Origin: Cirrosporium novae-zelandiae
Lineage: Eukaryota
Direction: 5' to 3'
Length of the DNA stretch: 64,000 nt
NCBI GenBank assembly: GCA_026023565.1
Contig: JAPETS010000017.1
Location: 124,001-188,000, forward strand
Under the pieces are notes generated by a model. That model saw only the letters and a list, made by a program, of their open reading frames with translations. It was not told where the DNA came from and did no database searches. Below are positions 25,703-64,000 of this stretch, one piece after another (within the stretch, counting starts at the first letter, position 1; each line of letters begins with the position of its first letter). A program made the translations under genes and the position numbers.

Positions 25703-25898
25703 CCCCGTGACGATCGATGGCTGGATGTGACAGCAACATCTCATCCGTTTCTTTCCTGTGACGGTGTCAGCGGTATGTGTCTCTATGTCTCTAGATAAAA
25801 TCAATTCGGATGTTTTCTCATCCCCCTGATCATCTGGATATAGGAGTCAAATCACCTTCTTTCATCATGGCTCCACACTACCTTTAGACTATATCACC

Positions 25899-27441
25899 AT
25901 GCGACACCTCACCCAAAATGATTCGAATTACGGCGCAGCCGGCACCCGTTTACAACCAGCTGAGCCGCTTCATTCGATTTCTACATATAATATGAATCAG
26001 TCAACCCGGATTAATGATGAAGAGGCGAGGGGAATTGTGGCGGCGTTGGAACGAAAGAGAAAACAATTGGACGAAGAAATTGAAAAATTCAGGGCAGAAA
26101 AAGACCGAGAGTACCAGCTATTTGAACAATTACTTAGGAACCAATACAAAAACAAGAAGAGAGAGCTGGATGAAATATCCAGCACCTGGCCCGCTCAAGA
26201 CCAAAACTCCAATTCCTCTGCCCTTCCAGGCATCCATGAGGCAGGATACGAAGGTTCCGCTGCAAGCAAAGCCAGAGCTATTATCGATACCGATGGCCGA
26301 GGAAGATCATTAAAGAGACAAGCTCATAATGAGAATATGCGCTCAACTGATAAAAATGACCAACAGCGGCTAAGCATACAGCTTGACCATCTTCCGCAGA
26401 CTTTTATGCATGACCACCCTGAAAGTTACACCCCAACTCACGATCGTGAGACTGAATTTCGAGGATTATTTACTCCAAGCTATCTTCCATTATTAGATAG
26501 TAGATCACGATCTCGCGAGAAGATCAAACAGGATTCTTCTAACTCCTCTTCAAACACAGTTCTCTTCCATCCCCGCTACCAGGACCACAACACCCCATTC
26601 CACAACGGAGAACGCTCCACCTCAGAGCCCAATTCCGTTTCTCATTCTCCGTTGTCAGTCTCGCCACCCACTGATTCACTGCCTTCTACCCTTGCTCCCT
26701 CTCGACCTCCTATTTTATACCGCTCACTGTCATCGACCAATACGCTAGTCAGCGCGCTAAGAAACCCCCTAAAACACAAGTCAAAACCAAAGAAGCGTGT
26801 TTCAATTCGCATCGACGATATGATTGTCCTCCCAAACCAAAGTATTGAAGACGGTTCAAGCGCCAATATGACTCCATCAAAGCTGTCCCCTCCAGACAGC
26901 ACGACGAGTTCCGGCAGTAAACCCATGTTCACCATTGGTCCTGATGACTCTAGCTCGGAATCCGGAAGTGAAGAGATGATTGAAGATACTGCGGATGAGC
27001 AGTATCTAGGCTCCCATCAGCCAATGTCTCGGTCCGAGACACCAATATCACCTCTGGACCTGAACGAGCCAATCCTTTCAGCTAATGAGGAAGAGGAAGA
27101 GGAAGAAAGATTGCAAGCAACAGTAGAAGAGAAAGTAGAGGCGTGGAAAGAGGATGTAGAGAAATCTTCGCCAGACGAAGGGCCTGGGATGTTTTTGATG
27201 GACGAGGAAGTCGACAGTCAGGAAACAACCAAACATGTCGAGGTTCGTCGATATGTGTATCCGGGGCTGATATTCAAGCCAAGGACTAACGGATGAATTA
27301 CAGGAGGAAGATGCAGATATAGAGATAAATGGTAGATATGATGGGAAAGAGAATGACATAGCGATGGATACTATGACTGCATCTTCTTTACCCATCAACA
27401 TTCCTCGCCCTTCCTTTTCTTCATCGGCCTCATCCCGCTAA
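25899..27441 (+). CDS. Hypothetical fungal protein (N-terminal coiled coil, FTPSYLPLLD motif, disordered Ser/Glu-rich C-terminus); intron 27243-27303
   Basis: 465-aa ORF plus an in-frame terminal exon EEDADIEING…ASSLPINIPRPSFSSSASSR*. Confidence 0.75.
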
Positions 27442-28069: not shown

Positions 28070-29574
28070 ATGCTGTCGAGGGCTTCCTTCCGCTTAGCTA
28101 GGGCTATGCCCAGAGCATCTCCCATATCATCCTTCAGAGTTGCTCCTGTAGCTGTTCGCCGGGTTACCACAGATGCCGCTTCGTCGCATACCGAACGGGA
28201 AAATGTTCCTTCAGTAAGTGAACAGTTAAACTCCCAATTGCTGCCAGAATTTAGGGATAAACCTCACATTGCTAACCATATTTTTCCTCCAGGAAGATGA
28301 CAAGCCTTTTGAAATCAAATTATCCGACGAGTCCTTTGAGACCTACGAGCTGGATCCGCCTTCATATGTCCTGAACACTACCAAGAGAGATCTTAAGCAA
28401 ATGTACACTGACATGGTGACAATCCGGTGCGTTTCTAACCTTTACATCTCTCCCGAATAATTCCAGAGCTCAATTGTAGCTAACCAACAATTTTTCCGTA
28501 GCCGGATGGAAATGGCCGCGGACCGCCTGTACAAGGAAAAGAAAATCCGAGGTTTCTGCCACTTGTCTACTGGACAAGAAGCTGTAGCCGTTGGTATTGA
28601 GCATGCTATTTCCAAGAAAGATCATCTCATCACCGCCTACCGTTGCCACGGCTTCGCGCTTATGCGTGGTAGCACCGTAAAGCGGATTATTTCTGAACTG
28701 CTTGGTCGCCGCGGTGGAATTTCCTACGGCAAAGGTGGTTCCATGCATATGTATGCTCCTGGATTCTTTGGCGGAAACGGTATCGTCGGCGCGCAAGTTC
28801 CTTTGGGCGCTGGGTTGGCCTTTGCTCACCAATATGAGGGTCTTGATACTGCGACAGTTGCACTCTACGGTGATGGTGCTTCGAACCAGGGTCAGGTTTT
28901 TGAGGCCTTTAACATGGCTAAGCTATGGAAACTTCCCGTTCTTTTTGGCTGTGAAAGTAAGCTCCTTCTGTCAATTCAATCCCTGGACCAGTTGAATTGT
29001 CTGCTAACATTCCTCCGTAGATAACAAGTACGGTATGGGTACCAGCGCGTCCCGTTCCTCGGCCATGACCGACTACTACAAGCGTGGTCAATATATTCCC
29101 GGTATCAAAGTCAACGGCATGGACGTCCTCGCCGTCAAGCAAGCCGTTGCCTTTGGTAAAGAATACACCGCCGCTGGCAACGGACCCCTCGTCATTGAAT
29201 ACGTCACTTATCGCTACGGAGGTCACTCCATGTCAGACCCCGGAACAACTTACCGGACCCGCGAAGAGATCCAGCGCATGCGTAGCACCAACGACCCCAT
29301 CGCCGGACTCAAGCAAAAACTCCTCGACTGGGGTGTTACATCCGAGGAAGAGCTAAAGACGCTAGACAAGGAGGCCAGAAAGGCGGTAGATGAGGAGGTC
29401 AAGGAGGCTGAGGCCATGGAACCCCCAACCGCTGATGAGGAAACCCTATTTGAAGATGTTTACGTCAAGGGCAGTGAACCTCCTTACCTAAGAGGAAGAA
29501 CCGTAGACGAAACATTTTATTATTCGAGATTGGAAGGCCGTGAGAAGAAGGAATTTGTTACCCAGACTTTCTAG
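28070..29574 (+). CDS. PDA1: Pyruvate dehydrogenase E1 alpha subunit, mitochondrial; three introns
   Basis: Arg-rich targeting peptide, [16 protein letters not shown]-binding [15 protein letters not shown]…[17 protein letters not shown]. Confidence 0.98.
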
Positions 29575-30751
29575 ATGCGTATACGTCTCGTCGCTGTTGA
29601 TTGGTTGGTGGGTGGGTGACCTGACCTGGCATTGATTGTATCCGAACTTGCTAGTAAGATTCATCGCGAGGATACTCAGCTTAGTCAGTCCGGAGACAGG
29701 GGGTAGGGGGATGAAATATCTTAATCGGATACTATTCTCAACTGTATAGTAGCTACTGCAATATGATGTGATGCAATGCGGTGCCCTCTGGAGACTCGAG
29801 ATGAAATGGAATGAAATAGTAGGGGGGAGGAGGAAGGTAAGGGGAGCAAGAGGAGAGGAAGTAATAGCATTTTTAAACCCAACCAAATATACAAAATCCT
29901 ACTTCCTGTTTTTTTTTTTGCCATTGCATGTGTATGATACTTTCTTCCTTTTCTTTTGATCTCGGTGAGAGATGCTCGTAACGTAAACTACGAACCACCC
30001 TCAAGCCTAACCAAAAAAAACCCCCATTAGGGGGGGAAATAAAGAAAAAGGAAGGAATATTTCATCAGCCAAAATCTTTCTACGTACGTCCCTGTTTTAT
30101 TTCTCCTCCCTACTAGAACTATAAATTAGAAGATGATATTTCCCATTTCCAACATATACTCATTGATGCTAATTAATTAATAACAACGACAATAAAACAA
30201 ATCAATAAAGAACCCCTCCTCTCTTCTTTCTTTTTTTTCTCTTAAGATGAAAACACAACGAACAAAATTCCATAATTTGTTTTTTTTTTGTAAAATACTT
30301 GTTTTGTATACTATATATATATATATTACACAGCATATACATACATACATATCTATCTACCAAATATTAAAATCTAACTCAAAAAATTTGTTTGCTTGCT
30401 TACTTACTAAAAAAAAGGGGGAGAGGAGAAGGAAAGATAAGGACTTGGATATTCTTTTTTTCTTTTTTTTTCTTCTTCTTTTTCTTTCTTGTTAATGTAT
30501 AATTAATGAAAAAGGGATTGAATTTGAATCAAGTTGGATAAATGAATGAATAAAGAAAAATAAAGAAAGTATTTTATATGTTTCTTCGAGCCTGAGCCCA
30601 AGTCAACCCACTCCCACCTCCTTTTGTTATGCAGTAAAGGAACCAAAAGGGGCCAACTACAAAAGCGAAGTCATAGATATCCTAAACTAAAACCAAACCA
30701 ACCCAAGTAGCAAATCAATGCCTTAAAAAAACCCCCTCCCCCTCCCCACAT

Positions 30752-31851
30752 TCACACAAACTCCACCTCCCCCCCAACAGCATTCTCTCTCGCCCAATTC
30801 CACACACCATCCATATCGCGACACGATTTCGTAACGGGCAGCTGGGGGAGAGGCTTTTTAGCAACGGGGTCGGATTGCCAGGAGATGGGGGTTATGTCGG
30901 CGTTGCAGAGGAGGGATTGACGGAGCCAGTCTAGGCAGTGGTCTTTTTTTTGTGTTAGTAGTAAGAGGAGGAGAGAGAGGTATTTGCTACCAAAAAAAAA
31001 AAAAAAAAAAACATACCAATATGTTGAGCATCCTTCCCCCCAAAATTCCTCGTTGTCCCGTCACCAAAAAAGTAATCGGTGAACTCGCTTCGATACCGCG
31101 GCACCTCGGGGACATACAAAGCCTTTCTGATAAGATCGACGCAGTGGATCTGGTGGAACACCTCGAGCTGGATGAGGTATTGATCCGGGTGGTCGGGGAC
31201 GGTGAGGGTTTTGCTTTGGAGCTTGGAGGCTTGGGTGAAGGAGATTTGGCTGTGCATGCTTTCTGTGATGGGGGGAGGGGTTTGTTGGTTTGATTTATTG
31301 TGGGAGATTAAAAGGGGGGAGGGGGTAGAAGATAGAGTGGAGAGATCAGGAAAAGAAAAAGGGGATTATGATTATGGCTATGGACTAACCGTTATAAAGC
31401 TCGTTCCATGCGGCGTCAGTTTCGATATCGGGAAGGCCATCAACCCCTTTCGCCATATAGGCTGTGCGGACATGGATCGAATCCTCTTGCACTTTGGTAT
31501 GGTACTCGATGATATCTTGAACCGGCGCTGAAGTAGCCATCCATTAATTTTTTGTCAGAAGGAAGGGGGGGCTCCTAAGTCTCAATCCCACGAAAAGCCT
31601 AAAGGTGAGTAGCACTTACAATATATTTGTGTATTCACGTTCGTGCAATTTCGTAGTTTATGGAGAGCAATGGTTGCCAGCATGGCCAGTATGGAGATGG
31701 ATGAAATTAAGGAGAGGATGGAGATGGCATGTTTGTATAAGAAGGCGCGGAAACCGCGGTTTGCGGGGTGGTGGTGGGTTTGCCATGCCACATCCGCGTC
31801 GCCTTCTTTCAGGAGATGATATGTTTCCACGTCTTGAAGATTTTCTGACAT
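30752..31851 (-). CDS. DUF3328 / UstYa-family oxidase (fungal RiPP tailoring enzyme), membrane-anchored; exons 31851-31620, 31527-31390, 31262-31017, 30942-30752
   Basis: Spliced product has an N-terminal TM helix, IYSPVQDIIEY, TDAAWNELY, LEVFHQIHCVDLIRK, HIDHCLDWLRQSLLCNADITP and CRDMDGVWNWARE. These are the family hallmarks, including two HXXHC motifs. All three introns are GT-AG and phase-consistent. Confidence 0.93.
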
Positions 31852-33850: not shown

Positions 33851-34742
33851 ATGAAGTCAACAGTCTTCGTTGTCCTTGCCTCTGCCCTTATCCAAGGCAT
33901 AGTCCTTGCAGCTCCCACTCCGTAAGTGGCCTATACATTACCATGAGTTCAGCTCTGACAAGTTTGAAATAGTTCACCATGGGAAACCAATGTTGAGAAG
34001 TAAGATATACCCAGTGCTTCCTAATAGCCAAGACATTAACATAAATATAGCGAGAAGCGGTCCCCAGAGGCAGAAGCGGTAGCAGAAGCAGAGCCGTAAG
34101 TAGTATTACATGTTGTTCGTAGTTAAGGCTAAGATTTCTGGAAGTGTTCCATGGGATACTACTCTTGACAAAAAGTGGGACACTACCCTTGACAAGAAGT
34201 GGGACACAACCCTCGACAAGAAATGGGACACAACTCTTGACAAGAAATGGGACACTACCCTTGACAAGAAGTGGGATACGACCCTTGACAAGCGATCACC
34301 ATGGGACACTGCAATCGATAAACGTGCTCCATGGGAAACTAATGTGGACAAGCGTTGGGAGACTAGTGTTGACAAGCGTAGCCCATGGGAAACAAATATC
34401 GACAAACGTTGGGAGACCGATCTTGATAGGCGTGTCCCATGGGATACTAGCCTCCACCGACGTGCTCCATGGGAGACTGATCTTGGTAAGCGTGAACCAT
34501 GGGAAACCGACCTCAGCAAGCGCTGGGAAACCAATGTCGATAAACGTGCCCCGTGGGAGACTAATGTCGATAAACGCTGGGAGACGAGTGTGGACAAACG
34601 TGCTCCATGGGAAACCGATATTGATAAGCGTTGGGAAACAAGTGTGGACAAGCGGGCTCCATGGGAAACCACCATTGATGAAAAGCGCTGGGTTACCTCT
34701 CTCGACAAGAAATCTCCATGGGAAACCGAACTTGAAGGGTAA
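33851..34742 (+). CDS. Secreted Kex2-processed repeat protein (KEP), candidate RiPP precursor with 23 W-[DE]-T-x-[LIV]-[DE]-type cores; exons 33851-33921, 33973-33999, 34051-34095, 34145-34742 (246 aa)
   Basis: Spliced sequence: MKSTVFVVLASALIQGIVLA-APTPSP-WETNVENE-KR-SPEAEAVAEAEPVP-WDTTLD-KK… . It has a signal peptide, three phase-2 GTAAG introns, and 22 more cores separated by KR/KK/RR. Confidence 0.92.
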
Positions 34743-35465
34743 AGTAAGATCCATCCTTGAAGGCAAAAAAGTAATACTGCAGTACTAAATGATAATCCAG
34801 AACCAAGACGAAGAGATGGCCGCAGCAGCCCGAGTTGCTTGAAAAATAAACTGACCATAAGCCAATGTTGGCTGTGAAGAGGCTTTTGAGAATGTTCAAA
34901 TTCAATTGATTTGTAGTTGATGTCTGGGTCTTATGGAATAGCGATTGTCAAAGTTGAATTACAGAGATGGGTGCTAATGCGTGTGTGAAATGTTTGTATC
35001 TGTTACTGTCCTGATTCCACCAGGCAGTGTTGCTATATAGTTTAGAAGAAAATACAGCCACTGTCTTTACCTACGTTCTCTGTTTTCCGCATAATATTCC
35101 TAATAAATTGATATGGAGTAGCAATATTAGTTTGGGAAGCATCATAAAAGAGAAGAATGCTTACTATGGCTTTAAAATAAGAATGCAAATCCATCACAGG
35201 ATCATAAGTGTCAAAGCTGACCAATAGCTAGGTACCCAGGGAGTTAACGCTGAACCACTAAGCTCACATTAAAATAAGAAACCAACTTCGAATAAGAAGA
35301 ATCATGTCTTCAATATCCAGATCAAGTCAATTACTATTTAGAAAATTAGAATTATCACGCTGTCAAGATATTATTTTCAAGTCATAAAAATACATGGGAG
35401 ATCGTTGACGGTTGCTGATCCTGACGCCTCAATCCACCAATCCATTTCGTTACACAGAGCGTTTC

Positions 35466-37134
35466 TTATACCTTGGCCCTTTTACTATCCACAGAGGCTC
35501 CGTCGTCTTCACCATCCTCATCCTCATCTATAATCTTTCTTTTACCTTTCCTCTCCACTCTTTCTACTGGCTCGTCTTTCTTATCCTCACGTGCTTCATC
35601 ATTGCTATCACCTGACTTCTTCTGCCATATACTAACCAATCTTCCGTAGTCCTCCTCTACACTTGTAACAGTCTCCTCTAGTTTCTCAACTCTATCAGGT
35701 TTTTCCAACTGCTTCAGGACATCCTTGTGTTTACGCCATAATCGCTGCTTCACTAGCAATCTCCACCAATAATATCTCCTATCGTTCTCATCTTTTGCTC
35801 GATATTTTTGCGTGAGGGCTTTGATCGGAGAACGATGGGCAGGCGGGATTGTTGTAAGGAGGTATAGTTCAATTAGGCGGGCTAGTTGACGCTGTGATAA
35901 TTTTGTAGCTGCAAGCAGTGGATAAAGGATGTGGGAGGATGGAGATAGAAGAGATGACGGTGAAATACGATGAGCTGGTTTAGTGGGGGTAGTAAGAGTT
36001 ATTTTTGGTAGAAGTGCAGATGATACAAGATTGGTATAATCACAGTAATCACGAAGATCATCAAAAGCCTCGTTAGGGTCCTCAACAGTAAAATCTTCAA
36101 TTGTGGGGTCTAAGAGGACGAATTTGTAGATAGTATTATAGAGGTGAATGCCATGGGAAGCATGCTGGTGCGCAGGAATGATAAGAAATTGGGATATGCG
36201 AAAGCGGGAGGGAAGCTTCGTGGGCGTCGGAGGAGAAGGATCTGGAATATGAAGATCAAGTTTTGCTGACGGTTTTATGAGACATGATTTCTTCCTGGGT
36301 TCTGGTTTTGGGAGCGTCCAGAAGCGGTAGGTGGTGGAATAGCCGACGAAAGAATAAGGTGAGACATTCGTATTAGGTTTGGTTGGTTGAACCTCATAAC
36401 TGGCGTTGAAGGTTAGTAAATATATTTAGGAAATTCCCTTGAAAGAAACTGAGGACATACATAAAAAACACCCTCCATCGTTCTAAAGTCCATTCTTGGT
36501 CATCCAGGTTAATGGATGTCCCTCCTTCGATGAAAAAGGAGATGAGAATCTGAATCCGTTCAACAAGTTCCTGTACCGAAGGATCGGTGAGAAGACCACT
36601 CCAGATTTCGAAATTGCGACCTTTACTTGAATATCTTTGAACAAGTTCTCCAGGGGGCTTAAATGGTATGGATGCTTGTTTCGTTTGGACGAGTTCGTTG
36701 AACTTGGTAGGCTTATCGAATGCGTCTGTAAAGATATGATTAATTTATATCAGAATGGATGTTTGTTTGAACCTACATTTGGGCAACCATTCACTCATAA
36801 TCTCCTTAACATCGGTAGCTTTGGTATCACCAACAGTCTGAAACTTTTTTTTATATGTAATATCGACATTGGGCAACAGGTCATCAGCAGAATACCGAAG
36901 GGCTATATTTAGACCCTGATATCCAAATATTATTTCTTCATCTCCAAAAATCGGGTAGGTGAATCGTGGATGAAATGATGAAAGTGTCTTCAGATCGTCT
37001 TCTGGATTCTCTGAAGGCTGCAGGAGGCTTATGGTAACGGCCTCATTGGCATCAATTGACCCTGTCAGATTGTTAGAATATCCTACGATGATATTTGGGG
37101 ATGTTGTAGACATACATTCGTCATTATCAGCCAT
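35466..37134 (-). CDS. HAT1: Histone acetyltransferase type B catalytic subunit Hat1; multi-exon
   Basis: Spliced N-terminus MADNDEWSIDANEA, FHPRFTYPIFGDEEIIFGYQGL, FFIEGGTSI, RFRISQFLIIPAHQHASHG, TIEDFTVEDPNEAFDDLRD, VKQRLWRKHKD. Confidence 0.93.
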
Positions 37135-37861
37135 GGCTAAAGAATTAAAGATGAGAAATTATTTGCGATGGATGATGGCAAGACGCCGATGGTGTGTTTG
37201 ATAGCTCTGCCTATAGGAGAATTCTCCAGTATTGCTTGCCCAAGATACCTAGGTACCTATCGATTAATAACGAGTCGGATATATCAGAACGTGCATCAAA
37301 GTTTGGCTCCTCTAGTGCGTCTGCGGATTTGAGCGTGGGAGCAGGTGCTTTGACAATGCAAGCTCGGTGTTGCACGCGTTCGCGTTTGAGGTTTCGCGAA
37401 GCTCTTTAGAGAAGCGAGGGAGCTCATAAAGTGTTAGATAATCGTGAGTCGTGACGGTGCAGCGGACTTAATTCTTTTTGAGGAGTCTTGAATAATTGAT
37501 ATAGTAGAATGGAATAACCAAAATATTCTGGTATGATTCGGGATATTTGGGATAGTTGGCTTCGTATTGAAGCAAGAGAAGTCCGACAATCCCACACCTC
37601 CTTGGTTCCTTGGCCGAAGCTTCACACGCCTCATAAAGAAAGAGCCTCAGCCCTACGAAACTCTCCCAATTATTCTAATTGATCCTAATCTTGACAAAAC
37701 CATCTCCCAATCAAATTATATCCTCACCACAAAAGGAGTTATGTTTCTGTTCTTGATAATGTGCCTTGCTATGATCTGAGTTTCAACGAGAACACGTCAA
37801 AAACAATTGGAGATTTTAACATTCTTTGCCGGCGCCTTTGCGCTGAGTAGAGGCCAACAAG

Positions 37862-39253
37862 ATGGAAGGTCTTTTTGTACTTCTCACCCTCTCGGTGGTT
37901 ATGGCTTTAGCGCAAGTTTCTTCCACTCCTTCTAGCCTTGTCAATGCTAATGCTATTTCCTCTAGATCCTTCCTGGCCGGTTCTTTGCCTTTGTCCTTTT
38001 CGCTGTCCCAATCACGCTTACGCTTAATATCTACAATTGGCATGGGAATATTGGTGGGAACATCATTGATTATAATAATACCTGAAGGAGTGGAAACATT
38101 GTATGATGCCAGCTCATCTACACATACTCATCAACAGAAAGATGTAATTGGGGAATCACTGAAAATAAGGTGGAATTCTGCTCAAGCCCGAGGCCTAGTA
38201 GAGCCAGGTCTTTCAATCATACAACGAGCCCAGGACAGTGGTGATATAAAGCTTTTTGATGAAAAATCGGATCTGAAAAAACCGTCTGAATTGACTATTT
38301 CAACAAGTTCGATTAGCCCCTTAAGTGCATCCGAGTCAACACTCTCAACGGTTCAACATTCGTCTACTACCAAATCAGAAGAAAAGAATGTAGATGAGGA
38401 TGAAGAAAAGGAAGAGGGGGAGGAAAATGATAAACACCACGAAGGTCACTCGCCACATGTATGGGTTGGAATATCGTTGATTTCCGGATTTGTTCTGATG
38501 TATCTCATTGACGAGCTTCCCCGACTTGCGACCTCCTCGACGAAAAAGCCACATCCCTACCATATTTCTTTGAATGATCTCGGGCGAGGGTTTCACCGAG
38601 CAGGTTCGCCGTCAAGGGATGAAGAACGAAACGGGTTTCTCGGCTCAGGCCCCTCACGATCTTCACGATCATTTTCTACAACTATGGGCTTGGTAATCCA
38701 TTCCGCAGCTGACGGAATAGCATTGGGGGCTTCTTCTTCTGGAACCAGCACCGGACTAAGTCTAATCATATTTCTTGCTATTATGGTTCACAAGGCACCC
38801 GCAGCCTTTGGCCTTACCTCGGTGTTATTGAAACAAGGCCTATCAAAACGGGAAACAAGAGCTCATCTTGTAATTTTTAGCATGGCTGCTCCATTGGGAG
38901 CACTGGTTACCTGGGTAATTGCAAATGCACTTGGTGGAGGGCGTATGGGCGTGGAAGGGACAAAGTGGTGGACTGGTGTTCTATTATTGTTTTCAGGGGG
39001 AACCTTCCTGTATGCCTCCTCTTCCACAACAATTTATCAACCAAAAACTAACAAATAACCTAGATACGTGGCAATGCACACAATGCGAGATGAAAGCACA
39101 TCCCCTCATCACCACCACGACAGCAGCCATGCAAACGGTTACGCAGACTCCCGAGAATCAGGGCAGGAACCCCGAAGATCTCTCCAAGATGTTCTAGCAG
39201 CCGTATTCGGCATGATCCTACCTTTATTTTTACAATTTGGCCATGCTCACTAG
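37862..39253 (+). CDS. ATX2: ZIP-family (ZIP9/Atx2-like) Zn/Mn transporter; GC-AG intron 37912-37965 and intron 39010-39063
   Basis: GTSLIIIIPEG, GLVIHSAADGIALGAS, IMVHKAPAAFGL, FSGGTFLYVAMH; multiple TM helices. Confidence 0.9.
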
Positions 39254-56500: not shown

Positions 56501-59206
56501 GTGCACTCTCCTTCCATTGAAATCTATAATACAGAGCACCACTGCATAAGCTTCGTCGACAACGTCTAATTAACTCCGACACGGATAGGATATTGACACA
56601 ATTCAGTACTCAAATTGACCAACTCCCATTCATTCAAAGCCCATATGTCAAATTCATCAAAAGACATTAATTATGTGCACCATTTTGTCAAGGGATAAGC
56701 TAACCCTAGACCAAAAAGGAACATGCAAGTTTCCATCACGCCTATGCAACGATAGCAGAGACCCATATAACCAGCTGCATATAACTTCCGAACGGCTATC
56801 TATCTAAGAGACTCATGTTATATATACATAGCCCCCATTACCCCCCCCCTATATATCGAATGGCGCAGGGTGTGAAGAGACATAGACCCTACACGGTGAC
56901 CGGGTTGGTACCCATCGGTTTACCACCTATATATACCGTTTCACACCACACCATTACAATAGATTTCATCCTAGAGACTCCCAGGAGATTATATTTTCGA
57001 CACTTTCGTTGACATAGTGACTGATAAATATTCGGAACGAGAGTTTCTTTGATCCTCAACATATTTAATTAAAGGAGGAGACACTCGACCTTGGAATGCT
57101 AGCCTAGGGGCGATGATTATAGAAAAATAATCAATAAGCTGCAAAATACTGTACATGAAATACCTGCCCACAGTGGGTGGCATGCATATCTACTAGGTTT
57201 TTTTTGGCCCTCGCCGCTTTCGAATAGCCAGTGACCGTAAAAAATGATAGATTGCCACGCGCACAAAGCTGTTTATCAATTATAAGCTCGAGGCTCGCTC
57301 GTCGTCTGGCACCTTTACGATAATAACCACACGTTTATATGAACCAAAAAAAAATCACCAATGCCAAACTTAGATCTTACCTCACCTTGTCTTACTTTTT
57401 AGTTAGTTAGATGCCCCCTTTGCAGAAGTTAGCTGTATTCATTATCTATTATAAATACTTTCCATTCTTTTTAATACTAAACCGACCATAAAAAAAAAAA
57501 CTGTATTTTCTAGGAAGGGTAAACTGGTAGTAGTAGCTAGAGAGATGGTGAATTGTCGTTATAAAGAATATGCGGGTTTTATTTGAAGAATGGTTGGCAT
57601 AATCTTCTGTAGGGCCTCAAAGCCATAATCTTCTATCGCTAGCCAATAATTTAATATTTCGCTGAGCTTGCTTGCATGCTGTTACGCCATAGCTTTGCCT
57701 CGATCAGGTCGTCCATGCACAACAATCGGAAGCACGAATACATTGATACCTTTAATACGGAGGAGCCACCGACGTTTTGATTTGTTCAGCAAATGTCGGT
57801 AATTACGGCCTAGATTTCCGAGGATTATCAAGACCATTAACTAGTTTATTTATCAGCGTCTGTAAGATTGAAGTATATCATTCTTGAGGAAGTGCATAAA
57901 CTCCTTATTAGACTAAAAATTCGGTGATCAAATTGGCATATTTAGCTCATTAGCTATAGAGGAAGAGAAGGTTCAAAGTGATTGCCTTCAATTCGCTAGT
58001 TGAGAAATGAAAAGGATTTCTCCTCTCAAGCGAATGAAAGAGACTGCTAAAAGTAGTTAATTAAATCGAGACTGTACCTGGCATGGCTATGTAGGAAGTT
58101 GGCGATAACCTGGTTATTTTCCAGTGGACGACCACGGTCCGTAAAGTTATAGTGGAGCTTCTAGTTGCAGGTTCCGCCGCTCGAGCTCCCGTGGGCGGGC
58201 TCCGGCCCAATGTCTATTTACTCTAGCTGCTAGTAAAACCAGAGTATAAACTTCGACGCTCAAACCACATCTTACCACAGGTTAGAAAATGGCTATTCAC
58301 CCTCACTGTAACCCATCTACGTATGCGCAATCTCTTTAGGCATAGTGTACTCCTCGAATCTCAAAGGGGAGGGAGGGATCTTAGGATTGAAATTGATGGC
58401 CCGTATTTGTATTTGCGCTAGCATTTACAAATAGCCACTCTTCGGTAATCGGAACATTCCTGCTGTGACTTACTTTTTGGCAAAAGTGAAACAGCTTTAT
58501 TGGTCCAGCAACGCGCCGCTGTGGCCCGATTCTTGCGATTCTGGTCTGAGAGTATGGAAACTTGAATGAAAATCCTCTAAGAGATGGATGCGACCGACCA
58601 TGTATGGAATTAAGCGAAAGGTAACGAGAGGGTCCTCGATAGGGAAAAGGATGATTGGTGAGGAAATCGGCAAAAACGATAAGGAGATGGCCGGCCAGGA
58701 TAATTCCTGTATATTTCCTGTCCAATGGGAGGGACATTGACTAGTAGGCTGGCGAAAAATGAAGGAGCCCAGTGCGGAGATTGTACAGATGGAAAAAGAG
58801 GCTCCGAAGAGGGATTCCCTTCTTGTTGTTGGACTGCAAATCGTCGGGTGATTGTGGCGTAGCAGATAAGCTTATATTTTCTATTACTAACCCTTGCTGG
58901 TAGCCAGGGCCGCAAGCTAGCGAGACTTCCGCGCCTGTCAGATGAACCCTGATACTGGAAAAGGCTAAATCTAGGAGAAATCGGTGTAACACTCTTGGGC
59001 TCCTAGATGATAACACTGACCCACTGTGGCTCCAACACGTTATACTCATCTGATATAGGTATCGTCGGTGTAGAGGTGGTCTAACATAGTTAGACCATGT
59101 TTTCCATAATTCGTAATTCCTGACCAGAGAATAGTAGACAAAGTATTTTCGTTCTTCGTGCTTTTCATTGTTATTCAACATCACCATTATTATCATCGTC
59201 ATCATT

Positions 59207-60124
59207 ATGCCGTCAATCCAAAGGGCTTTTGCAGATTCCTCCCTAGGTGAAGTTCATTATCGATATCTCCTAACCGACAATGAGCCGAAGAAACGTCCGA
59301 TTGTCTTTCTGCACACGTCCGCCTCGTCCTCCGCAAACTGTGAGAAAATGATGAAAATGTTTGCGCCTCTGGGTCATGATTGCTACGCTCCCGACATGCC
59401 AGGATTTGGGGAGTCGTTCGACCCGGCGGAAGACCCCGTCAACATAGCCTGGTATGTACATGTATACGCAGAGGTGTTTCAGGATATCGGATTCTTCGAC
59501 GACGGCTTCCATATTGTTGGATACCATGCTGGAGCTTCCATCGCGATCGAGATGGAGACACTGTATATGAACGTGATTCGAAGTATATGTATGATTGGGC
59601 CAATAATCATGTTGGATCGGGAGCGGGCAATGATGAGGAAGGATTTTCAGAGCGTATTCAACAAGCCTATACTAGACGGGTCCGGTTTGACCAAGGCATG
59701 GAAATATCTGGCGGAGCTTGGCGTGGGGGACAATGTCGAGTCCAAACACAGAGAAGCTCTTAATCATACAAGAGCATGGAAGGGAAGATACCAGATATAT
59801 AACGCCGTGTTGAATCAGGACTCGGAAGCTGTGTTCGTCCAAGTCAGTTGTCCGGTAATGGCATTGCGTGCACGGGATGACATTTTATGGCCATACTTTG
59901 ACAACGTGCAAAAGATCAGACCAGGAACCAGGGTCGAGGAGATTAAAGGTGCAGATTTCGAACCAGATAGGGATGCGGAGGGAATCTATGAAGAGTATAC
60001 AGACTTTCTGCGGTCAGTGGAGAAATGGGACACCAAGCATGGGATCTCTGTTGAATTCGGCGAGAAAGAGCTTGAAAAGAGAGCTGAACTTGTTTGCATG
60101 CTTTGGAAAGCACAGGCTTGCTAA
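59207..60124 (+). CDS. Alpha/beta hydrolase-fold protein with a non-canonical nucleophile elbow; intronless
   Basis: IVFLHTSASSS, YAPDMPGFGES, FHIVGYHAGASIA, VSCPVMAL. Confidence 0.85.
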   Translation: MPSIQRAFADSSLGEVHYRYLLTDNEPKKRPIVFLHTSASSSANCEKMMKMFAPLGHDCYAPDMPGFGESFDPAEDPVNIAWYVHVYAEVFQDIGFFDDGFHIVGYHAGASIAIEMETLYMNVIRSICMIGPIIMLDRERAMMRKDFQSVFNKPILDGSGLTKAWKYLAELGVGDNVESKHREALNHTRAWKGRYQIYNAVLNQDSEAVFVQVSCPVMALRARDDILWPYFDNVQKIRPGTRVEEIKGADFEPDRDAEGIYEEYTDFLRSVEKWDTKHGISVEFGEKELEKRAELVCMLWKAQAC

Positions 60125-61354
60125 AATGTTGATTTCATGTGAAAACAAAGGAGCAAAAGGCGTAACTCATGGGTGGCATTGTCGATGGAGTTAGTGGGTT
60201 ATGGTTTGATATGGAATAGATGTATATAGAGGTCATAATGATTCACGATAGAGGGTTAGATTAATCCGAGATATATCTCCAAATCTATCTTCTCCCTTAT
60301 TTCAAGATATATTTGCTTGGGATTGTCAGTAATTGATGAAGAAGGAATAATATAATGAGTTGATGAAGACTTGAGTCAACGGCGGAATGGGATATTCGCT
60401 CGGAAAAATCATGTTTGCTTGGTTTGCAGAGTGCTTTACTAGGAAATTGAGGCGTGGGGGTAGCGCAGGTATATTCCTCCGTCCAATGCCATCATGTATC
60501 GGAAGCTATGCTAGCTCCCGAAATCATGTGATGAAGAACAAACATAACAAACATCATTACAACACACAACACTACCAATTGTCATGGTTGCAACTATTCC
60601 CAATTTATATATCCACCTTTGTTCCCTCTTCTAGGTGACGGTTCAATAGTATTCCAAACTCTAGCGATGTTTCTAGGAGTTCTAGTGACGATTTAAACGA
60701 CGAGAATCTCTCTTTGGGCGATAATATAAATGATATGGAACAGCTTGATAACGGCTGCGACGAAGAGACTAACGAAAATGAATCAATTGGGACTGCTTCA
60801 GACTTTGGATAGATCAGATGTTGGTTTTTAAACTAAGAGTTTTCTGTCTTTCGTGTATTATTTTTTGCTTCAAACCTATTAGTATTAATTTAAGCCTTTG
60901 ATTTCTATAAATTCATCTTCAATTCCCACCCCCTATTGTTCATCCTGGCCTTCTGATACCCCAAGGCATATTCCAAACAGCGACGTCTTAGCGTCTTAGC
61001 AATAGTCTGGGAGCTCAGAGGTACATAAAATCGTTCTACAATTGGGAAATAGACTGAATGTAAGTGGGTGTTCTTCTTTTTGCTTGTTGCTATAGCTAAT
61101 TTGAGCTGCAAGGTTTTGCAGGTGTTTAGTTTGTCCGATCGGGTTGATATTTCGACCGCAGCGACCATTGTCGGTACTCCAACATCATGATTTACCTTGA
61201 AGAATCAGACAACATGTGAAGTCTTTGTGGTTATCATTATGATTTAATGTGAAATGTATTTGTAATCAGTAGCTCGATTGCAAGTATATAGTGAGGGCAC
61301 ATCTACCATTTCATAACTCAGAAGTTCTTCTATATCCAATACCAAATACCAAGT

Positions 61355-62368
61355 ATGACCAACAAAACAGTCCTCGTCACCGGTGCCAATGGCTACCTTG
61401 GCCGCGCAGTCTGTCACATCTTCTCCCTTTCAGGATGGACCGTTTACGGTCTGGTGCGCAGTCAGGAAAAGGCGACAGGCCTTGCTCTGGACGAAATCAC
61501 TCCCATCATCGGCTCATCAAGCGATTTGTCTTTCCTGTCCGACAAACTTCAAGACACTGTCTTCGATGTGATTGTGTCTACGACTGAGGATCTAGGAAAT
61601 TACACCCCGCATTTCGAGTCTATCTTGGAGTTGGTCAAAGCCGTTTCTGGGACGGCAAAGAAGCATGGGAAGAAACCGCTCTTACTCTTCACATCTGGGT
61701 CTAAGGATACCGGTGAATCTGGCCTCGAAGGTTCTCCAGACTTCGTCGTTCATGATGAAACTACACCTGATAATAATCAGGTCAAGATCATTGCCCCCCG
61801 TACCGAGAATGCACCTCGTGTCTTCAATTACCAGGATCAGTTCCATGGTGTCGTGATCCGGCCTACTCCCCTCTATGGACACAGCGGTTCATTTTATGGA
61901 CAACTTTTCCATTCTTTCACAACTAATCAGCCTGGCCAAAGTATTGTTATATACGGCGACCCGAAAACGGTCTGGCATGGGGTTCATGTCGACGACTGCG
62001 CTAGGGCATATGAGTTGCTCGCTAGTCAGTTCTACCAGTGTTCTGAGAAGGTGCATGGACAAATTTTCCTTATAGGCAATGAGAAATGGGATACAGTGGG
62101 TGATATAGTGGAGGGGCTTCGGAAGGTGTACGGGGAACGGAAGGTCGAGTGGATGACACCTGATCCAAACAATCAATTTCAGACTCTCATGGCGCATTCA
62201 CAGGCAATTTGCGCAGACAAGATGAGAGCCTTGGGTTGGACGACGAAGAAACCTGCACTCGTTGATTCGATTGACGTGTATGTAGCAGCTTGGGAGGAGG
62301 CAATGAGGATGGAAGATGCAAGGGCCAAAAAAATGTTGGAGATGGTGAATCTGGTGCTCAAAGAATGA
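61355..62368 (+). CDS. NAD(P)-dependent epimerase/dehydratase (atypical/extended SDR); intronless
   Basis: Rossmann motif VLVTGANGYLG, WTVYGLVRS, VIRPTPLYG, VHVDDCARAY. Confidence 0.9.
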   Translation: MTNKTVLVTGANGYLGRAVCHIFSLSGWTVYGLVRSQEKATGLALDEITPIIGSSSDLSFLSDKLQDTVFDVIVSTTEDLGNYTPHFESILELVKAVSGTAKKHGKKPLLLFTSGSKDTGESGLEGSPDFVVHDETTPDNNQVKIIAPRTENAPRVFNYQDQFHGVVIRPTPLYGHSGSFYGQLFHSFTTNQPGQSIVIYGDPKTVWHGVHVDDCARAYELLASQFYQCSEKVHGQIFLIGNEKWDTVGDIVEGLRKVYGERKVEWMTPDPNNQFQTLMAHSQAICADKMRALGWTTKKPALVDSIDVYVAAWEEAMRMEDARAKKMLEMVNLVLKE

Positions 62369-62969
62369 TTGAGGGGAAGTGTAATTCTCGATATTGGAGA
62401 GTATGATTTGGTTATTCTATAGCTAGCTTCCACTTGATGATGATACATATGTCGAGGTAGATAAATCATAGTAGCTGAACACCACGAGTACGCATTGCTT
62501 GAGGTCAGAAATTATCAATCGTAAATTGTTCTTCCTCATCGTGCACCATGCTACTTCTCATATCGTAATGAGTGCTGAAACAAAACAGAGTAAAGGGAAA
62601 GGAAGCTCTCTATGTTAGCGTTGAAATGATGCCATGGCAAAAGGCATTTTGCAATCACAGCAGTATAGAGAAGTGTTATACTAAGATGCTAATGGAAACA
62701 ATAATTGGAGAGTTTATTAAACATTCTACTCTTATAGATGGTACTGGTTTACTATGGTCAAGGATGAGGAAAGCTTGAAATTAGATAAGATATGCTATCC
62801 ACTAATGTATTTAAGCCAAACCACATCTCCCAAGTCCAACGTTTCATTATCACAAATAACTCGGTATTTATGAAACAAAATGATGCTTATGGTCCTTGGC
62901 AAAAGTTTTATATACTCGGAAATCACTGGTATATTCGTATATCAAGTTACAGCTTAATGCTTTAATCTA

Positions 62970-64000
62970 ATGGCTGAATTACAAAAATCGTCAACAGCCA
63001 CCTTTCGGATGTTGCAATCCAACCCCGAACCAGAGGAACCACCGCGCCCAGTAAAACGCGCGAGAGTTACCTTAGCATGCCAGAGGTGCAAGGCAAGGAA
63101 GCAGAAGGTTGGCTCTAAGTCCTGATATTTGGGTTGTCAGTCGTTCGATGCTCTATGGGAGCTTTATGGAAACTCTGCTGACGACTTCTGTTTACAGTGT
63201 GATGGTGCCCATCCAGCTTGCTCAAAATGCAAGGCCCACAAGCTGCCCTGCAAATATATCATACCTAATAAACCAATGCCATTTGGGAAAAATCATTACA
63301 TCAAAGCCCTTGAGAATAAAATTGCTGAATTAAAAAGCTACATTAGAGAAAATTCATTACAATTACAATCGAGTCAGGACGACGTACAGGATGTGCAGAA
63401 CTCTCCCCATTGTCCTTCTGCTTTACAAGATAGCAATCCCCATAGCCCAGAAACAGAAACCTGGCAACCCCAGGAGGAAAATACAACCAATATAACAGAA
63501 GATACTTATGCTTCGGAAAATGATGATAATGAAACCTTTGGATCGCAAAAGGGATTAGATTCCATGGTTGACGTGCTCAGAGATTTGTCGCTAGATGCAA
63601 ATGGCGGTTATATTGGCGCGTCATCTCATGTGAACATAGGGAAACTGATTAGCTCTATAATCAATTCCGGGCGGAGTAAAGACCTTACTGGAAACAGTCA
63701 TGTTCAAGACTCTAGGAACGTTCGTCTACCAACATTGAGTTTAGGAATAGGACAGGAGTGTGAAAGCTTTGGATTCTCAGACGTTCCAGCAGATGTCGCA
63801 GATCGGCTGGTTATTGAATATATGAAACATATTTCCCACCGATGGCCAATCCTTCAGTCTTCGTGGATCCAGAAATTACATCTTAGACGAGACACAATCG
63901 ATAATGTGTTTGAAAAGAGTACCCTTCACCTCATCTATGCCATAGGAGGTTGGTGTCTAGAAACAACTGGGAAGGCCGGAGGATTCTATCCTGAGAAACA
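62970..64000 (+). CDS. Zn(II)2Cys6 fungal transcription factor (3' end outside the window); intron 63108-63197
   Basis: ACQRCKARKQK|CDGAHPACSKCKAHKLPC binuclear cluster, a YIKALENKIAEL dimerisation helix, then an open frame to the window end (GGYIGASS, RWPILQ). Confidence 0.92.

Follow-up and report, generated by a model that had tools for sequence, protein, structure and literature searches.

A 64,000-nucleotide stretch of Cirrosporium novae-zelandiae DNA (contig JAPETS010000017.1, positions 124,001 to 188,000 of the forward strand; assembly GCA_026023565.1), hereafter the window, contains a gene at positions 33851 to 34742 that, to judge from its sequence, encodes a Kex2-processed repeat protein (KEP) with a STE13 signature. 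The predicted precursor consists of a signal sequence followed by 23 short units, each of which begins with tryptophan. A first-pass annotation of the sequence had read the gene as an alpha-factor-type precursor that is matured by housekeeping Golgi proteases. This proposal agrees with the published STE13 signature and with the near-universal presence of the proteases in fungi. However, a full-length gene of the UstYa/DUF3328 family is located about 2 kb upstream, and therefore the reading of the cluster moves from a plain alpha-factor-like peptide to the precursor of a dikaritin-like RiPP (a peptide made on the ribosome and altered after translation). We lean towards the interpretation that the precursor and UstYa constitute a minimal dikaritin-like RiPP pair in which tryptophan replaces tyrosine. 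The protease steps considered without the UstYa part are somewhat more probable than the pair as a whole.

Repeat units and dipeptide spacers of the precursor

All 23 tryptophans of the precursor are the first residues of units with the pattern W-[D/E]-T-x-[L/V/I]-x, which end with the dibasic pairs KR, KK, or RR. Tryptophan follows directly after 11 of the 22 dibasic sites. A single X-Pro dipeptide (AP five times, SP three times, VP and EP once each) separates it from another ten, and the remaining site is followed by a run of seven dipeptides, SP-EA-EA-VA-EA-EP-VP, before the next tryptophan. All spacers have an even number of residues, with proline or alanine at each second position. Thus, the first-pass claim of a grammar without exceptions, in which a dibasic site precedes either tryptophan or X-Pro and X-Ala dipeptides and then tryptophan, was borne out at 22 of 22 sites and by the unit-first position of 23 of 23 tryptophans. 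A comparison of the composition of the mature region with the list of spacers showed that all 16 prolines belong to spacers, where they occupy the second positions of dipeptides. Shuffling of the 14-residue pro-spacer filled all seven even positions with alanine or proline in 62 of 200,000 trials (exact value 1/3432).

The first-pass annotation had also supposed that a free N-terminal tryptophan is functionally required; what the sequence shows is the invariance of tryptophan at position 1 of the units, together with threonine 3 and the aliphatic residue 5. The C-termini of the units are less regular than the N-termini: in units 1 and 21 additional residues precede KR, and no dibasic site ends unit 23. 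The mature region contains no tyrosine, phenylalanine, or cysteine, and tryptophan is its sole aromatic residue. KEPs are recognized by at least three similar short peptides between dibasic KR, RR, or KK sites, and the precursor has 23 units and 22 such sites. The STE13 signature, which consists of XA or XP dipeptides directly after a Kex2 site, is known from alpha-pheromone precursors and other KEPs (PMC6339444; publications are cited here by their PMC numbers, for those parts of each text that were available). Spacers of this kind follow 11 of the 22 sites of the precursor.

Structure of the precursor gene

The window has a fungal appearance, with 44% G+C and short GT-AG introns. The predicted precursor gene is composed of the following parts:

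33851 to 33921, forward strand: exon 1, which opens with the ATG and a hydrophobic stretch taken as the signal sequence (residues 1-20), continues with AP-TP, and breaks off after two bases of the following proline codon
33922 to 33972, forward strand: intron 1, 51 nt, phase 2, GTAAGT...TAG, with a CTGAC branch-like motif recognized by eye
33973 to 33999, forward strand: micro-exon 2, 27 nt, which finishes the proline codon and continues with SP and unit 1 (WETNVE..)
34000 to 34050, forward strand: intron 2, 51 nt, phase 2, GTAAGA...TAG
34051 to 34095, forward strand: micro-exon 3, 45 nt, encoding ..EKR and then the dipeptide run SP-EA-EA-VA-EA-E(P)
34096 to 34144, forward strand: intron 3, 49 nt, phase 2, GTAAGT...AAG
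34145 to 34742, forward strand: exon 4, encoding VP, units 2-23, and the TAA stop

The four exons join in frame into 741 nt, which encode 246 amino acids and a stop codon. We infer the three-intron splice model from sequence signals. Read-through of any of the three donors leads immediately to an in-frame TAA and, by reading of the sequence, the use of the next downstream AG as the acceptor of intron 2 would shift the frame into a stop. Micro-exon 2 corresponds to one complete unit, the first five residues of which, WETNV, are identical to those of units 9, 16, and 17, and micro-exon 3 displays a 6-nt CAGAAG periodicity at positions 34065-34092. Both micro-exons clearly appear to be coding. 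The DNA pattern of the unit in exon 4 occurs 18 times in the window and was not found in any of 100 shuffles.

All the introns are in phase 2, so the skipping of exon 2 (27 nt), exon 3 (45 nt), or both keeps the reading frame. The dipeptide grammar would survive the skipping of both exons, because AP-TP-VP-W would still result. Within intron 3 lies an ATG that shares the frame of exon 4 (open reading frame 34104-34742), and an automatic gene caller could take it as the start of a protein without a signal peptide. A TATA-like element was noticed by eye about 110 nt upstream of the signal sequence. The repeat array at 34104-34947 keeps several frames open over long distances, the opposite strand included (221, 274, and 162 amino acids). 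One of the antisense frames (34109-34930) produced a Pfam line for CED4_WHD, which was rejected as a repeat artefact with no matched stretches.

Residues 3-20 of the precursor have a mean Kyte-Doolittle hydropathy of 2.18, which fits the secretion signal expected of a KEP. The (-3,-1) rule gives two candidate positions for the cleavage of the signal peptide, after residue 16 (between IQG and IV) or after residue 20 (between VLA and AP), of which the latter is most likely the one used. The AP-TP-SP register of unit 1 depends on the cleavage after residue 20, because cleavage after residue 16 would leave a start that cannot be trimmed. Therefore, the earlier expectation that the predicted cut is followed by AP-TP-SP-W agrees with cleavage after residue 20 and fails with cleavage after residue 16, which the rule also allows.

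Selection on the repeat units

The units of exon 4 are organized in two tandem arrays identified by Tandem Repeats Finder:

34152 to 34292, forward strand: 24-nt tandem array, 5.9 copies, containing six WDTTLD-KK/KR units without spacers
34329 to 34669, forward strand: 54-nt tandem array, 6.2 copies (69% matches, 4% indels), with the repeating composition [X-Pro + W-core + KR] + [W-core + KR]

Since the units are tandem copies, the number of independent cases is well below 23. The 54-nt block combines a spacer-bearing unit with a spacer-less one, and therefore the alternation of units with and without spacers was inherited by duplication. Nevertheless, the copies have diverged, and among the 20 canonical units the mean codon entropy was 1.25 bits at the third position and 0.53 and 0.45 bits at the others. 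The residue that precedes tryptophan in the spacers is proline in 12 of 12 cases (CCA eleven times, CCG once), while the residue before it is serine, alanine, valine, or glutamate specified by seven codons. All 23 units retain threonine 3, for which each of the four threonine codons is in use. Position 5 is occupied by leucine, valine, or isoleucine in every unit, with the use of seven codons. The six WDTTLD units differ from each other by silent changes alone, with the exception of one substitution of lysine by arginine. The codon patterns of the diverged copies therefore demonstrate purifying selection on the reading frame, the core, and the spacer proline. Selection acts on tryptophan 1, threonine 3, the aliphatic residue 5, and the proline of the spacers.

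UstYa gene upstream of the precursor

The gene located upstream of the precursor is:

30752 to 31851, reverse strand: UstYa/DUF3328 gene, exons 31851-31620, 31527-31390, 31262-31017, and 30942-30752, encoding 268 amino acids

The UstYa and precursor genes are divergent, and their start codons are 1999 nt apart. The product of the UstYa gene is identical to the 268-residue database protein P0001, listed by one source as a hypothetical protein from a metagenome-assembled genome of Cirrosporium novae-zelandiae, a species classed in the Xylobotryomycetes. P0001 matches Pfam family PF11807 with a value of 3.4e-40 over profile positions 7-220 of 220, and carries a single hydrophobic segment at its N-terminus. 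UstYa proteins are described with two conserved H-x-x-H-C motifs (PMC12048977). P0001 contains both of them, as HQIHC and HIDHC, aligned with the same motifs in the protein P0083 from Monilinia laxa. Only two relatives were found in addition to the self-match, the best of which was P0083 with 43% identity. Thus, two features of a dikaritin-type locus are present, namely a UstYa/DUF3328 gene near the precursor and the pair of H-x-x-H-C motifs. Intron 3 of the UstYa gene begins with a run of about 20 T (30990-31015, reverse strand), and a low-complexity stretch very rich in A/T lies downstream of the gene at 30000-30700.

The surroundings of the two genes were compared with Pfam in two scans, the first of 56 open reading frames picked from the 129 of at least 90 amino acids across the window, and the second of 146 open reading frames of at least 40 amino acids from gaps in the region of 24 to 42 kb. 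UstYa (PF11807, 30958-31365, reverse strand) is the one secondary-metabolism domain among the 56 frames. No peptidase, tyrosinase, or methyltransferase domain was detected near the precursor in the two sets, and the gap set added no transporter to the ZIP transporter of the first set. The absence of a cluster peptidase, which the first-pass annotation had asserted, was thus confirmed within the frames scanned.

Proposed maturation and modification of the peptides

Based on the sequences of the precursor and UstYa, a maturation pathway can be proposed. The signal sequence would direct the precursor to the endoplasmic reticulum, where it would most likely be cut off after residue 20. In the late Golgi, kexin would cut after each of the 22 KR, KK, and RR sites, a Kex1-type carboxypeptidase would remove the basic residues, and a Ste13-type dipeptidyl aminopeptidase would trim the X-Pro and X-Ala spacers two residues at a time until it halts at tryptophan. 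The trimming presumably stops there because Trp-Asp and Trp-Glu are not X-Pro or X-Ala dipeptides. This would yield about 23 acidic peptides, for the most part hexapeptides of the form W-[D/E]-T-x-[L/V/I]-D, with 14 distinct sequences, of which WDTTLD occurs six times. The calculated [M+H]+ values of the linear forms are 750.3305 for WDTTLD, 763.3257 for WETNVD, and 736.3148 for WETSVD. We infer all the protease steps for this precursor from systems in which they are established. In alpha-factor-type precursors, Kex2 cuts after KR, Kex1 strips the basic residues, and Ste13 takes off XA and XP dipeptides (PMC6339444). The removal of XA and XP from a non-pheromone KEP of Coprinopsis expressed in Pichia was seen by peptidomics (PMC9769878), and tryptophan was among the better variants at the P1' position of Kex2 in one Pichia construct (PMC10135057). 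The proteases KEX1, KEX2, and STE13 are near-universal, since only 15 of 250 fungal proteomes were without at least one of them (PMC6339444).

The same organization is known from KEPs with the STE13 signature (Le Marquer et al. 2019; Umemura 2020; Agaricomycete peptidomics 2022, in the available parts of these texts). These share with the precursor the N-terminal signal sequence, which is predicted here, and the tandem short peptides separated by KR, RR, or KK, and in both cases XA or XP follows the dibasic site and no dedicated peptidase is needed. The peptides described here are unusually short (mostly six residues) and numerous (23).

In the dikaritin-like pathway, UstYa may oxidatively modify the peptide core, possibly by forming a cross-link from tryptophan 1 to threonine 3 or to the aliphatic residue 5. 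The putative cross-link is modelled on the Tyr1-Ile3 link of ustiloxins and phomopsins, and any UstYa chemistry on these peptides is proposed by analogy. The side-chain cross-links of ustiloxins, phomopsins, and asperipin-2a are the work of UstYa-family enzymes, and the link in the first two runs between an aromatic residue at the N-terminus and an aliphatic one inside the peptide (PMC9233826). We consider a dikaritin-like RiPP the most likely purpose of the precursor because the UstYa gene is its divergent neighbour and tryptophan is the sole aromatic residue of the peptides. Tryptophan would thus be the only aromatic partner for a cross-link, and the characterised UstYa-linked cross-links that one review names use tyrosine or phenylalanine (PMC9233826). 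Genes of the DUF3328 family are strongly enriched beside KEP genes: for 22% of 7878 KEPs there is one at a distance of up to 15 genes, 31.8% of 9399 DUF3328 genes are near KEPs, and their count peaks at the adjacent gene (PMC7329392). The locus resembles those of the dikaritins ustiloxin (UstA/UstYa/UstYb), phomopsin, and asperipin-2a (AprA/AprY) in its predicted secreted multi-core precursor cut at KR and in the adjacent UstYa/DUF3328 gene with two H-x-x-H-C motifs. As in ustiloxin and phomopsin, position 1 of the core is aromatic and an aliphatic residue lies within the core (PMC9233826), and the small size of the cluster, with one UstYa gene, is shared with asperipin-2a (PMC7329392).

Several observations weigh against the dikaritin-like pair. 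According to the available text of Le Marquer et al., the STE13 signature is absent from the precursors of ustiloxin, phomopsin, and epichloecyclin, and KEPs that carry it are proposed to give rise to unmodified hormone-like peptides (PMC6339444). The signature is present here. The mature region offers no core tyrosine as a cross-link donor. Tyrosine was found in 65.6% of DUF3328-associated KEP repeats compared with 38.2% of those without the association, whereas the content of tryptophan was no higher with DUF3328 than without it (20.5% and 24.5%; Umemura, PMC7329392). The definition of ust-RiPS clusters by Ding et al. includes tyrosinase, methyltransferase, peptidase, or transporter genes, but some of these genes are also missing from functional clusters that were described later (PMC12048977). 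None of these genes, nor that of a reductase as in dikaritin clusters, was found near the precursor among the 56 and 146 frames. KK is a less frequent Kex2 site (PMC6339444) and is used at six dibasic sites of the precursor. The signal-peptide cut on which the register of unit 1 depends is one of two positions allowed by a rule of thumb. No homologous precursor came to light among the matches inspected in two protein libraries or among the loci from metagenome contigs.

The most probable alternative is that Kex2, Kex1, and Ste13 release linear, unmodified, tryptophan-first acidic hexapeptides with a secreted signalling or another extracellular role, and that UstYa acts on something else or is a chance neighbour. 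We regard this as less probable than the dikaritin-like pair. It remains serious because of the view of Le Marquer et al. on the STE13 signature, which is tied to hormone-like peptides and missing from the known cyclic-peptide precursors, and because of the figures of Umemura on tyrosine, which the precursor lacks, and tryptophan, which is not enriched in DUF3328-associated KEPs. Furthermore, a nearby DUF3328 gene is missing for 74% of KEPs (PMC7329392). However, UstYa is the immediate divergent neighbour of the precursor in an otherwise housekeeping region. The 9399 DUF3328 genes reported from 1461 strains (PMC7329392) correspond to about six per genome, and therefore chance adjacency of one to a given gene should be rare, according to this rough estimate from other genomes. 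In addition, the invariant tryptophan 1, threonine 3, and aliphatic residue 5 resemble the spacing of the cross-link partners in ustiloxin (PMC9233826).

A further alternative, which we consider improbable, is that the X-Pro dipeptides are kept in about half of the mature peptides as a protection against aminopeptidases, or that they merely aid the cleavage by kexin, so that not all the products start with tryptophan. Of the 21 sites that follow the first, 10 have a spacer and 11 work without one, so that no spacer is needed to expose tryptophan. The alternation of units with and without spacers, inherited from the 54-nt two-unit block, can also be read in this way. In contrast, every spacer is even in length with proline or alanine at the second positions, the 14-residue run included. 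Moreover, proline is conserved while the residue before it drifts, as would suit a dipeptidyl aminopeptidase and not a cap. The removal of XA and XP observed for the Coprinopsis KEP (PMC9769878) argues for trimming as well.

It is very unlikely that the gene encodes the alpha-type mating pheromone of this ascomycete. The alpha-factor of Saccharomyces also starts with tryptophan after EA spacers. The peptides described here, however, are strongly acidic and lack the cysteine, glycine, and proline features of Pezizomycotina pheromones. Published alpha pheromones are 9-24 residues long and are present in 1-16 repeats, whereas the peptides of the precursor are mostly six residues long with 23 repeats. 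The translation of exon 4 matched no Pfam family at E <= 0.001, so no mating-factor family was detected. The predicted precursor has the architecture of the alpha-factor precursor, with a signal peptide, KR sites, and X-Ala or X-Pro spacers (PMC6339444), and the processing logic is the same as that of MF(ALPHA)1 from Saccharomyces cerevisiae, in which KR is followed by EA or DA dipeptides and Kex2, Kex1, and Ste13 act in turn (PMC6339444). The precursor differs from MF(ALPHA)1 in having unit 1 straight after the signal sequence instead of a long glycosylated pro-region, X-Pro in place of X-Ala where the repeats join, half of these junctions being spacer-free, and an acidic peptide of six residues instead of 13. 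It also differs in its UstYa neighbour, since DUF3328 genes are almost never found beside pheromone genes (PMC7329392).

Searches for homologous precursors

A word-index protein search with exon 4 as the query returned 6383 candidates (lengths 108-347 amino acids), none of which reached E <= 0.001. A HMMER scan of 1.84 billion representatives provided 81 matches at E <= 0.001, with no self-match among them. Fourteen of the 81 were inspected, and all 14 were unrelated proteins with other repeats of about eight residues. The best-scoring array matches (P0008, P0013, and P0017) include animal neuropeptide-type precursors with short repeats separated by KR, which have the same architecture and are not relatives. 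The lack of a self-match suggests that the precursor is missing from the source annotation. Its apparent absence from the libraries fits the idea that repeat-rich precursor genes with micro-exons escape automatic annotation.

A degenerate DNA pattern covering about 2.4 consecutive units identified 22 loci in metagenome contigs, which include few fungal genomes, and none of the loci encodes a KEP with this grammar. The best score in the ESM Atlas, 0.76 for a bacterial hypothetical protein, was uninformative. No occurrence of five core hexapeptides was found in the literature searched, cores starting with WET or WDT were not present in the possibly incomplete supplementary text of two KEP surveys, and no tryptophan-based UstYa product appeared among the papers listed.

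That the array is non-coding or decaying, or that it is not spliced to the micro-exons upstream, would explain the lack of a library protein covering the array and of a self-match, the apparent gap in the source annotation, and the long frames that the repeats keep open in five of six frames, but such a non-functional gene is highly improbable given the strong in-frame third-position bias, the almost exclusively silent divergence of the six WDTTLD copies, the full unit in micro-exon 2, the perfect KR and dipeptide run in micro-exon 3, the canonical splice signals, and the signal sequence preceded by a TATA-like element.

Genomic surroundings of the gene pair

The housekeeping genes that flank the precursor and UstYa were identified by Pfam:

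28461 to 29571: pyruvate dehydrogenase E1
35469 to 37158: Hat1
37847 to 39055: ZIP transporter

A 488-residue open frame without a Pfam match (25830-27293, forward strand) is located two genes from UstYa, past pyruvate dehydrogenase E1, and nothing ties it to the precursor and UstYa pair. About 25 kb downstream, there are genes for an alpha/beta hydrolase (59138-60121) and a reductase of the NAD-dependent epimerase/dehydratase type (61295-62365), beside a weak Zn2Cys6 match (63126-63998, forward strand). These genes, which lie together at 59138-63998 on the forward strand, perhaps constitute a small metabolic group of their own.

Implications for KEP and UstYa gene pairs

The grammar of the precursor is textbook alpha-factor and KEP biology, and therefore the gene is a clear instance of it and introduces no new principle. 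The locus adds an example to the known kind of KEP and UstYa gene pairs. The less common aspect is the combination of a tyrosine-free precursor with the STE13 signature, an adjacent UstYa gene, and no other tailoring gene nearby among the frames scanned.

We speculate, as a tentative extension of the dikaritin-like pair, that the locus represents a tryptophan-anchored dikaritin-type branch, in which UstYa would link the indole of tryptophan 1 to threonine 3 or residue 5, the alpha-factor-style Ste13 trimming would be built into the precursor, and housekeeping Golgi enzymes would suffice to supply the tryptophan-first substrate. If so, the branch would be a two-gene pathway producing up to 14 related macrocycles per transcript in a little-studied class, the Xylobotryomycetes. 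If a UstYa-dependent change occurs on these peptides, the chemistry of UstYa would extend from tyrosine and phenylalanine to tryptophan, and the pair would provide a minimal two-gene system for studying substrate recognition by UstYa enzymes.

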